From: Escherichia coli
GTDB lineage: Bacteria > Pseudomonadota > Gammaproteobacteria > Enterobacterales > Enterobacteriaceae
Length of the DNA stretch: 64,000 nt
Assembly: GCF_044324875.1 (NCBI RefSeq)
Contig: NZ_CP172185.1
Reading direction: 5' to 3' (one strand)
Below the pieces are notes generated by a model, which was not told where the DNA came from, ran no database searches, and saw only the letters and a program-made list of their open reading frames with translations. This document shows, piece after piece, positions 30,602 through 33,569 of the stretch; the first letter of the stretch is position 1, and every line of letters starts with the position of its first letter. Both the position numbers and the translations under genes were made by a program.

Positions 30602-30891
30602 GATGTACCTCCTGGTTGCAGGGTGACTGTATCATCAGACCTTATCATGCGTTTAAAAAATGTCCGGCAACTCACACTTTTCGGTAAGGAGGTGGCTATT
30701 ACTGCAAATGATGATGTCTCGGTTTTTATTTTTTATTCAATATTTTCATCCTGTTATTGTTATTATGTTTGTCCATACCCTGTGTGGTTCCCTGCGTATT
30801 CCGCTCTATTCGATCACGGATTGGCATCGAAGTCCGATCAGCGATTCGCATCCATTCGATCAACCGGGAACTTAACTTTTTCTACCGCTTT

Positions 30892-31647
30892 TTAACGCGT
30901 TTTTTCGCTGCTTTCCACTACCGGGGGATTTTTCCTCAGTGACTCTCCCTGAAGGACCACTCGGTGTGAGTTATGTACCAGTCTGTCCAGGATGGCATCT
31001 GCTGTTGTTGGGTTCTCCATCAGACCATGCCATTTATCTACCGGGAACTGGCTTACCACTATCGTGCTGCTTTGTCCGTAACGATCCTCTATGAGCTCCA
31101 GAAGGTCATTACACTGGGCGTTACTTAACTGTTCCAGCCCCAGATCGTCCAGGATTAGAACCTGTATTTTTTGCAACTGTTTCAGATATTTCAGCCAGCT
31201 GCCATCAACACGTCCCTGAGCCAGTTGTTCCAGTAATCGCCCGGTTCTACAGTACCGGACGCTGTGTTTCTGTCGACATGCCTGTTCGCCCAGCGCATTG
31301 GCTATCCAGCTCTTGCCACATCCTGTCGGACCGGTTATCAGCAGGTTTTTCCTGTGGGTTATGTAGTGGCCGTTCAGCAGTTCTCTCATCTGTTCAGCCC
31401 GCAGACCTCTTGAGGCCGGATAGCGCAGCCCTTCCGGTGTTGCCTGGTATTTCAGGCCGGCATTTTTTCTCAACCGTGCCACACGGCTGTTTTCCCTGCT
31501 CAGAAGCTCGTCATCAACCAGCAGCGTCAGCCTTTCCTCGAACGACAGTTCGTCGTAGGTCTGAGGCGTTTCCCGCTGCCGTATCAGGCTCCCGGCCATC
31601 GCCGGGAGTTTCAGTTGGGTCAGTTTGTTTAACAGGTTATCACTCAT
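30892..31647 (-). CDS. IS21-family helper ATPase IstB
   Basis: Walker A GPTGCGKS, Walker B ILDDLG; start placed at MSDNLL inside the longer listed ORF. Confidence 0.8.
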   Translation of the reverse strand: MSDNLLNKLTQLKLPAMAGSLIRQRETPQTYDELSFEERLTLLVDDELLSRENSRVARLRKNAGLKYQATPEGLRYPASRGLRAEQMRELLNGHYITHRKNLLITGPTGCGKSWIANALGEQACRQKHSVRYCRTGRLLEQLAQGRVDGSWLKYLKQLQKIQVLILDDLGLEQLSNAQCNDLLELIEDRYGQSSTIVVSQFPVDKWHGLMENPTTADAILDRLVHNSHRVVLQGESLRKNPPVVESSEKTR

Positions 31648-31663
31648 ACTGTTGTTCCTTCTG

Positions 31664-33199
31664 TCAGTGGTAGTAGCCCGGACCACGCAGGTTTTCATGC
31701 TCTGAAGCATATGCCGGATGTTGTTCGCCCTGGCGGGATAATGGAAGCTCCAGGTTCTCCCGATGGTGACGCAGCAGATTGTCGATAAAGCGTCTGTCAG
31801 GGGCGTTATAGTGCAGGGCAACGTAACAGGCCTTTTCCAGCCGTTCCGGGCCGTATTTTTTCTGAAGTGCCAGCAGCCCCAGAACTGCACGATAAGCCAG
31901 TTCCGGATGGGGTTTTGCCTTCAGCATGGATTCAACCACCCGGCCTGTGGACGGGCCCGTACGTTTTCCCTGCTCGATCAGGCGTTCCGGTGTCCATGTC
32001 CCGTGCTGCCGGTGGCGCTCTGGCATGTGAAGCGGATTGGTTGTGTGTTTATATTCATGTGTGCTGCGCGGATGTTGCGCCACACACTGCCCCTTGTGCC
32101 AGAGCTGTACCACCGACTGCCCCGCCTTCAGTGACAGACGCTGACCGACCAGTTCGTGTGGAACGGAGTACCAGTGACGGGCATATTCAACGTGGTAGTC
32201 AGGGCCAACCTTCACAGCTTTGTATTCCGTGTATTCATAAGGTGCCAGAGGCAGCGGAGAGAGTGCTGGCGCATCCAGTATGCGGAAGCGTTCTGCACGG
32301 GTTTGATTGCCGTACCCCTTCATTGGCCGGTTATTCATGTCTGTCAGTAACTCCCTAAGGCGCGCATTCAGCGCCCTGAGCGTGTGGAAGGTTTCATTAC
32401 GGATGCGGGCAAGAAGCCATCGTTCAACGATGAGGACGCCGTTTTCTGCTTTTGGTTTATCTTTAGGTTTGCGTGGTCGGGCCGGGATGATAACCGTGCC
32501 ATAGTGCTCAGCCAGTGCCTGATAACTGTCGTTGATGACAGGCTCATATCGATCGGCCTTTTTCACTGCGCTTCTGAGGTTATCGGGGATGAGCAGCTTC
32601 GGTACGCCGCCCAGGAAGGTCAGGCAACGGCTGTGGGCATTTAACCATGACATCATGTCCTGACCTTCGCACGCTTCAACGTAGGTATAGTTGGACGCCC
32701 CCATTACGGCCACGAAGATTGCCACGCGGCGTATCTCACCGGTGTCCGGATTAATAACAGGAACCGTAGGACCACAGAAGTCGATAAAAAGCTTTTCGCC
32801 GGCACGATGCTCCTGGCGCATGGAGAGACGTCGCGTTTTTTTCCACTCCCGGTAGCAACGGCAGAAGTGCGAGTATCCCATCGCTTTGTTACCCGCCTGT
32901 GCCTTGTATTCCATCCACAACAGTTGCCGCGTCACACCTGGTTTTCTCATTTCCGTATCGAAGTACAACATGTCAGGCATTACAAGCTCTGATGCAAAGG
33001 TGTCTTTGGGCGGAAAAATGAGTTTCTCCAGCGTGTCATGGGATATATCAGCAGGTAATGGCCATGACAGAGAAGAGGCTTTGAAGCGGGCAAGAACCTC
33101 AAAAACGGTTGAGGCGCTGATGTGTAACGTCAGTCCGATACAACGGTTAGTCAGCTTCTTGTCGAACTTGAGCTGAAGGATCTTAAAACAGGTTTCCAT
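31664..33199 (-). CDS. IS21-family transposase IstA
   Basis: N-terminal HTH and DDE region; start placed at METCFKILQL. Confidence 0.75.
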   Translation of the reverse strand: METCFKILQLKFDKKLTNRCIGLTLHISASTVFEVLARFKASSLSWPLPADISHDTLEKLIFPPKDTFASELVMPDMLYFDTEMRKPGVTRQLLWMEYKAQAGNKAMGYSHFCRCYREWKKTRRLSMRQEHRAGEKLFIDFCGPTVPVINPDTGEIRRVAIFVAVMGASNYTYVEACEGQDMMSWLNAHSRCLTFLGGVPKLLIPDNLRSAVKKADRYEPVINDSYQALAEHYGTVIIPARPRKPKDKPKAENGVLIVERWLLARIRNETFHTLRALNARLRELLTDMNNRPMKGYGNQTRAERFRILDAPALSPLPLAPYEYTEYKAVKVGPDYHVEYARHWYSVPHELVGQRLSLKAGQSVVQLWHKGQCVAQHPRSTHEYKHTTNPLHMPERHRQHGTWTPERLIEQGKRTGPSTGRVVESMLKAKPHPELAYRAVLGLLALQKKYGPERLEKACYVALHYNAPDRRFIDNLLRHHRENLELPLSRQGEQHPAYASEHENLRGPGYYH

Positions 33200-33569
33200 A
33201 GTGCTCCTGGATTTTCTCTTTCTGGACATTGACGTCTCCACTGGTTTAAACACGGCAATGGAGACTGTGGTGAAAAGAGTTAATTCCCGGAGTGACTGGC
33301 AGGATGCCAATCAATGATCGGAAGCATGCCAAATCGTGATCGATTGTGATGCCAAACTGTGATCGGAGATGGATGCCAAATCATGATCGATTCGAATGCC
33401 AAACTGCGATCGATTCAGATGCCATTTTGCAGTTCCCCGTTCTTTACATTCAGGCACTTCCGTTTCCTTTAACGTTTTCGTTACTCTCTGAAGCTTGTGG
33501 TATCTGTGATGGCTGATTCCTGCCGTCATACTGCGAAATTCCGGATATCAGACCGTGGAGGATTCTGCC

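Follow-up and report, generated by a model that had tools for sequence, protein, structure and literature searches.

A complete ISSso4 copy with a 6-bp target-site duplication in the region separating glutaredoxin-like and dolP-like genes of an Escherichia coli genomic island

Insertion sequences (ISs) of the IS21 family, as catalogued in ISfinder, duplicate 4–8 bp of target DNA where they insert. Structural work has described a tetramer of the transposase IstA that binds the direct repeats of each IS end, synapses the two ends and uses the 3′-OH of the terminal CA, together with decamers of IstB that bend target DNA and activate IstA for strand transfer (PMC10122671, PMC11208146); the IstA-bound repeats in IS21 ends are spaced 23 bp apart (PMC10122671). 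One member, ISSso4, has been listed among the accessory modules of plasmid pCT (PMC6361801), and a class named "IS21 family (ISSso4-like)" has been listed elsewhere (PMC3072379). Here we describe an IS21-family element on the minus strand at positions 30793–33431 of a 64,000-nt stretch of Escherichia coli contig NZ_CP172185.1 (assembly GCF_044324875.1), hereafter the window. It is 2639 bp long with TG...CA ends, and we are highly confident that it is a complete copy of ISSso4 that entered the gap between a glutaredoxin-like gene and a dolP-like gene of a genomic island by ordinary IS21-type transposition, leaving a 6-bp duplication.

The insertion site was found without the element in other strains. 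The left and right flanks, 500 bp each with a single GTTCCC counted in the left one, were joined into a query and searched against 5,426 complete E. coli genomes, and 19 chromosomes matched it uninterrupted at 96–99.5% identity, with no match on any plasmid. At two of these empty sites (L001 and L002), the 30 nucleotides before and the 25 nucleotides after the hexamer are separated by exactly 6 bp, GTTCCC, which is present there as a single copy; in the window the hexamer can be read directly on both sides of the element, at 30787–30792 and at 33432–33437. The two window hexamers are thus a true target-site duplication, and the ends of the element are proven. The bases beside the two hexamers are unlike each other, both on the outer side (G versus A) and on the inner side (T versus C), so the boundaries cannot be shifted in either direction, fixing the duplication at exactly 6 bp and the element at exactly 30793–33431. 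A length of 6 bp lies within the short duplications typical of the family. All 21 places with these flanks, in 19 genomes of which two have an extra place, are free of the element, and because the site is occupied in no complete genome, the insertion belongs to the source strain alone. A match in E. coli CM2 seemed to break at the insertion point because the query began there; the sequence itself reads as a diverged empty site, GTTTCC.

The element starts with TGCGTATTCC and ends with CCATTTTGCA, and its terminal inverted repeats, TGCGTATT...ATTTTGCA, have the 5′-TG and CA-3′ termini of the IS21 family; these termini are fixed because the empty sites and nine other copies of the element agree on them. 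Both ends carry multiple units spaced by about 23 bp, as is characteristic of the family, the istB end having three and the istA end six. The terminal inverted repeat at the istB (right) end spans 30793–30880 on the plus strand and holds about three repeat units (TGCGTATTCCGCTCTATTCGATCACGGA / TTGGCATCGAAGTCCGATCAGCGA / TTCGCATCCATTCGATCAACCGG), whereas that at the istA (left) end spans 33303–33431 on the minus strand and holds six GGCAT-containing units at spacings of 22–24 bp, which make up direct-repeat families D1 and D2. Inverted-repeat pairs I1, I2 and I5–I8 connect the two ends. The motif GCATN{4,7}CGATC has two plus-strand matches at the istB end, 24 bp apart, and five minus-strand matches at the istA end, spaced by 23, 24, 23 and 22 bp, plus a terminal variant; given these strands, the two arrays are inverted relative to each other. 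Across the 64 kb the motif has nine matches compared with 2.6 expected, a number reached in none of 100 shuffles; one of the nine, at 25681, lies within a solo IS21-type terminus described below. Apart from that weak solo terminus, the window holds no second copy or fragment of ISSso4.

Two intact open reading frames on the minus strand fill the element in the gene order of the family, a long istA ahead of a shorter istB. The first, istA (33199..31664), encodes a 511-aa DDE transposase that scores 284.7 bits against NCBIfam model NF033546 (cut-off 160) and contains the Pfam rve domain and the Mu-transposase C-terminal barrel (Mu-transpos_C_2). The second, istB (31647..30892), encodes a 251-aa AAA+ helper ATPase scoring 257.8 bits against NCBIfam model NF038214 (cut-off 200) and 1e-60 against Pfam IstB_IS21 (PF01695); both NCBIfam models are equivalog models, and both proteins exceed the cut-offs. 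IstA could be aligned to the solved IS5376 IstA (8b4h/8q4d, E ~1e-13), and this alignment suggests that D140, D206 and E252 form the catalytic DDE triad, with spacings of 66 and 46 residues compared with 63 and 46 for D124, D187 and E233 of IS5376. IstB is homologous to the solved IS5376 IstB structures (8q3w and 5bq5, E ~1e-24) and retains intact Walker A (GPTGCGKS at residue 106) and Walker B (LILDDLG at residue 164) motifs. The istA ATG is preceded by AGGAG 5 nucleotides upstream, and the 16-nt spacer between the istA stop codon and the istB ATG contains AAGGAA.

We identify the element with high confidence as ISSso4, an IS21-family insertion sequence that has already been catalogued. The copy on pCT (NC_014477, 41986–44624) is likewise 2639 bp, differs by 7 mismatches (99.7% identity) and is flanked by its own 6-bp duplication, ATACTT; the NCBI name for the identical IstB protein (WP_001282653.1) is "IS21-like element ISSso4 family helper ATPase". 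Matches to the element came from 1,919 E. coli records and from 506 plasmids, with 100% identity across positions 1–2639 in many cases, and 225 genomes have at least one place spanning at least 80% of the element, with up to 23 places per genome. It occurs on chromosomes and on conjugative plasmids, the plasmid matches coming mainly from Escherichia, followed by Salmonella, Shigella and Klebsiella; this spread points to recent movement of the element. Eight copies in unrelated contexts have 0–1 mismatches and agree in the 12 bases at each terminus, starting with TGCGTATTCCGC and ending with TGCCATTTTGCA, and homology among copies extends to the TG and CA ends and no further. These eight copies have direct duplications of their own of 4, 5, 5, 6, 7, 7, 7 and 7 bp, and since the comparison was made in the register of each copy, the lengths are real and the duplication length of ISSso4 is variable. 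Over ten insertions (the window, L003–L010 and L016) the duplications measure 4, 5, 5, 6, 6, 6, 7, 7, 7 and 7 bp. Separately, a 2636-bp contig of E. coli ESDR8 (NZ_JBXSPU010000008.1) consists only of this IS (positions 4–2639); it is probably an assembly artefact from a collapsed repeat, or may represent a circular form of the IS.

These results bear out most of the initial annotation, which had described an intact IS21-family element at 30787–33437 with an istA/istB pair, multi-repeat termini and a GTTCCC duplication, lying between glutaredoxin-like and DolP-like genes. The open reading frames, profiles and repeat arrays agree with the element, the single GTTCCC at the empty sites L001 and L002 agrees with the duplication, and the flanking open reading frames and their annotation agree with the position. 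It had also allowed that the ends might map elsewhere, and when this was checked with the empty sites and the eight independent copies, both ends and hexamers held. Its reading of the element as probably active is a reasonable one.

Membership in the IS21 family and the solved IS5376 system suggest how the copy would have arrived. IstA tetramers would bind the repeat units spaced by about 23 bp in both terminal inverted repeats, bring the two ends together in a synapse and cut at the terminal CA-3′; IstB, as an AAA+ ATPase, would bend the target DNA, recruit IstA and activate it for strand transfer; and integration staggered by 6 bp, followed by joint repair, would yield the GTTCCC duplication. 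With intact genes and ends and identity to many other copies, the window copy is probably still mobile. Nothing in the sequence contradicts this account. The points that weigh against it are that activity of the window copy is judged from identical copies at different sites, that a trap-plasmid study of an ISSso4-carrying plasmid did not capture movement of ISSso4 (PMC9927407), and that the name ISSso4 derives from NCBI annotation and the published annotation of pCT.

The strongest of the alternatives is that the copy looks intact and is an immobile relic, the identical copies having been spread solely by horizontal transfer or recombination of host DNA. The failure to detect transposition in the trap-plasmid study would fit such a relic, as would the fact that the movement argued for here is read from sequence. 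We nevertheless consider it improbable: the ten insertions lie in distinct contexts with their own 4–7 bp duplications and 0–7 mismatches over 2639 bp, single genomes hold the element at as many as 23 places, the window site is empty in 19 of 19 other genomes with the locus, and the open reading frames, ribosome-binding sites, catalytic motifs and both repeat arrays are all intact. Less probable still is that the element belongs to the IS21 family as a separate, unnamed member, or that it forms part of a composite transposon of larger size. The name was reached through NCBI and pCT annotation instead of an ISfinder reference, which leaves some room for a distinct member, yet the 99.7% identity is to an element published as ISSso4, and the NCBI naming rule places the identical IstB under ISSso4; as for a composite, homology to other copies ends exactly at TG and CA, and the window has no second or partial copy able to form one. 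Finally, a chance match of two 6-mers would be non-negligible taken alone, but the possibility that the hexamers are coincidental and the true ends lie elsewhere, or that the element arrived by recombination between two other copies, is negligible, as L001 and L002 hold exactly 6 bp, GTTCCC, between the anchoring flanks, the ends equal the limits of homology to the base in nine other copies, and recombination between two copies would leave unlike hexamers.

Insertion of ISSso4 into this site is in itself an ordinary finding, a catalogued IS behaving as expected, and its importance lies mostly in annotation, for which the exact ends and duplication are now fixed. The target was a 323-bp divergent intergenic region. 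On one side is the glutaredoxin-like gene (83 aa, 30350..30601, minus strand), which lies on the same strand as istAB with its start codon 191 bp from the istB end; its product scores 32.5 bits against NCBIfam GrxA, below the cut-off of 84, and orthologues are named by NCBI as "glutaredoxin domain-containing" or "thioredoxin domain-containing". On the other is a dolP paralogue (190 aa from its ATG, 33570..34142, plus strand), divergent from istA with its start codon 138 bp from the istA end; the protein has two BON domains and scores 275.4 bits against NF008247 (cut-off 184), and orthologous loci are annotated dolP. Insertion into the shared promoter region of these genes might change their expression, and as a strain-specific event it could act as a lineage marker. 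A consensus scan found no sigma-70-like promoter in either the reconstructed empty intergenic region or its occupied version. Terminator-like sites in the scanned interval 30550–33620 are on the plus strand only, inside the IS; as none was found there on the minus strand, that of istAB, including in the stretch from istB to the glutaredoxin-like gene, read-through from istAB into that gene is conceivable.

Taken as a whole, the window is an E. coli genomic island of mosaic make-up, in which no tRNA genes were found. Positions 33438–58000 match islands of chicken-associated E. coli that carry leoA, encoding a dynamin-like GTPase, and genes of SPI-7-type integrative elements (dnaB-PI, ParB, ParA, STY4528 and topoisomerase III). 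Two chicken E. coli sequences, NZ_CP033635.1 (L011) and NZ_CP158308.1 (L015), each hold two diverged copies of the dolP–yebF island segment, all of them without the IS. In ECCNB12-2, the glutaredoxin-like gene is present in both segment copies, one of which adjoins a tyrosine recombinase gene and lptG.

A second IS21-type end lies in a pile-up of mobile elements at 22.9–26.3 kb of the window, composed of an IS66-family element, an lsrK remnant, the IS21-type end, an IS4-like end and an IS66 remnant. The complete IS66-family element (22968–25409, minus strand, tnpA, tnpB and tnpC) is 2442 bp with ends GTAAGCG...CGCTTAC and an 8-bp duplication, GATGAAGG, at 22960–22967 and 25410–25417, and it adjoins the lsrK fragment, which at 25600–25671 is immediately left of the IS21-type end. 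That end comprises only the outer 38 bp of a left end (25672–25709, plus strand; TGCAAAATCGCATCGTGTTCGATCGCCGATTCGCATCG) and has a single motif match. Over 36 nucleotides it shares 77.8% identity with the ISSso4 left end (about 70–78% over 36–43 nucleotides), and it is 100% identical to positions 3501–3538 of another locus, L012, where the end runs on for approximately 160 bp with further repeat units and a CAGTCACTCCTGGAATTAAC box; judged by these alignments, it is an outer piece of another IS21-family member's left end. The initial annotation had placed a related solo terminus at 25671–25714, 1 nucleotide off at its start and 5 nucleotides too far at its end, and had taken it to imply earlier IS21-type rearrangements. 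A real IS21-type left end, and with it an earlier IS21-type presence, stands, although the end belongs to a different family member, and it was IS4-like and IS66-family insertions that destroyed it. An IS4/IS50-like left-end fragment (25710–25821, plus strand) interrupts the terminus; it is 79% identical to loci annotated "IS4/Tn5 family transposase DNA-binding protein", and its end, CATCCCCTTACCCACAAG, matches the inverted repeats of a full-length IS4-like element in a further locus, L014. A truncated IS66-family end with a transposase fragment (25822 to about 26262) in turn cuts the IS4-like fragment at 25822 via its inverted repeat.

IS4/IS50-like elements, with inverted repeat CATAYCCTTACCCAYAA and a 9-bp duplication, were found within the terminal repeats of IS21-family elements at least four times, in what appear to be independent cases, a small sample that was not systematically collected (window 25710–25821, L013 from 2532, L014 2542–4031 and L024 401–1890). 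In L014, a full IS4-like copy follows nucleotide 38 of an ISSso4 left end with the 9-bp duplication TTGGCATTC on both sides, and three other loci (L025, L027 and L028) seem to show this arrangement in diverged form. In L024, an identical IS4-like copy sits reversed within an ISSso4 left end, between TGATGCCAA and GAATGCCAA, and relatives follow nucleotide 62 of a third IS21-type end in L013 (target TTCGCATCT) and nucleotide 38 of the IS21-type end in the window (target TTCGCATCG). Because uninterrupted identical versions of the invaded ends exist, the window ISSso4 for the ISSso4-type end and L012 for the window-type end, the four cases look like independent insertions. They span three different IS21-type ends and both orientations, and in all four the target is TTSGCATYN, the core of the predicted IstA-binding unit. 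From this we tentatively propose, as a possibility that we rate a little below probable, that a small group of E. coli IS4/IS50-like elements inserts specifically in the IstA-binding units of IS21-family ends, at TTSGCATYN and with a 9-bp duplication. Weighing against such specificity, the flank of a 74%-identical relative (L026) is only loosely like TTSGCATYN. An ISEc13-family transposase annotated beside some ISSso4 matches was also considered and rejected; it is a neighbouring gene with an annotation that overlaps the IS end, and is not the IS4-like element in question. Scanning the genome contigs of the whole collection for the IS4-like end CCCTTACCCACAAGTTGAAATA gave no match, a protein scan with the L014 IS4-family transposase returned only 32–61% identical relatives in unrelated bacteria, which are uninformative on the target site, and a literature search for IS4-family elements targeting IS21 ends found no relevant description. 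If the proposal is true, IS4-like insertion would disable IS21-family elements or hitch-hike on them, and the group would be a small but real addition to what is known of target-specific insertion sequences.

The nearest parallel to this side case is found in ISs of the IS5075/IS4321 type (IS1111 family), which target the terminal repeats of Tn21-family transposons. As there, an IS enters a fixed motif within the transposase-binding end of another element; the side case differs in having an IS4/IS50-like invader, a 9-bp duplication and an IS21-family repeat unit in place of a Tn21-family end. For the window element itself, the closest relative is the ISSso4 of pCT, a Shigella sonnei / E. coli element, which is alike in its 2639-bp length, TG...CA ends, gene order, identical IstB and 6-bp duplication and differs by seven nucleotides and its insertion site, with no functional difference apparent. 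More distantly, IS5376/IS21 (8B4H, 8Q4D, 8Q3W and 5BQ5) shares the istA–istB operon, the DDE transposase and AAA+ helper, the terminal CA, short target duplications and, in both ends, multiple units spaced by about 23 bp. Its proteins are nonetheless distant in sequence from those of ISSso4, whose 511-aa IstA has a longer C-terminal region (the solved IS5376 chains have at most 406 residues), whose ends carry six left and three right repeat units instead of the typical two (L1/L2 and R1/R2), and whose duplications range over 4–7 bp compared with the constant 5 bp reported for IS5376. The 22–24 bp spacing of ISSso4 units agrees with the published 23 bp (PMC10122671), and overall the anatomy of ISSso4 fits a transposition scheme of the IS5376 type, the individual steps of which we infer by analogy with that system.

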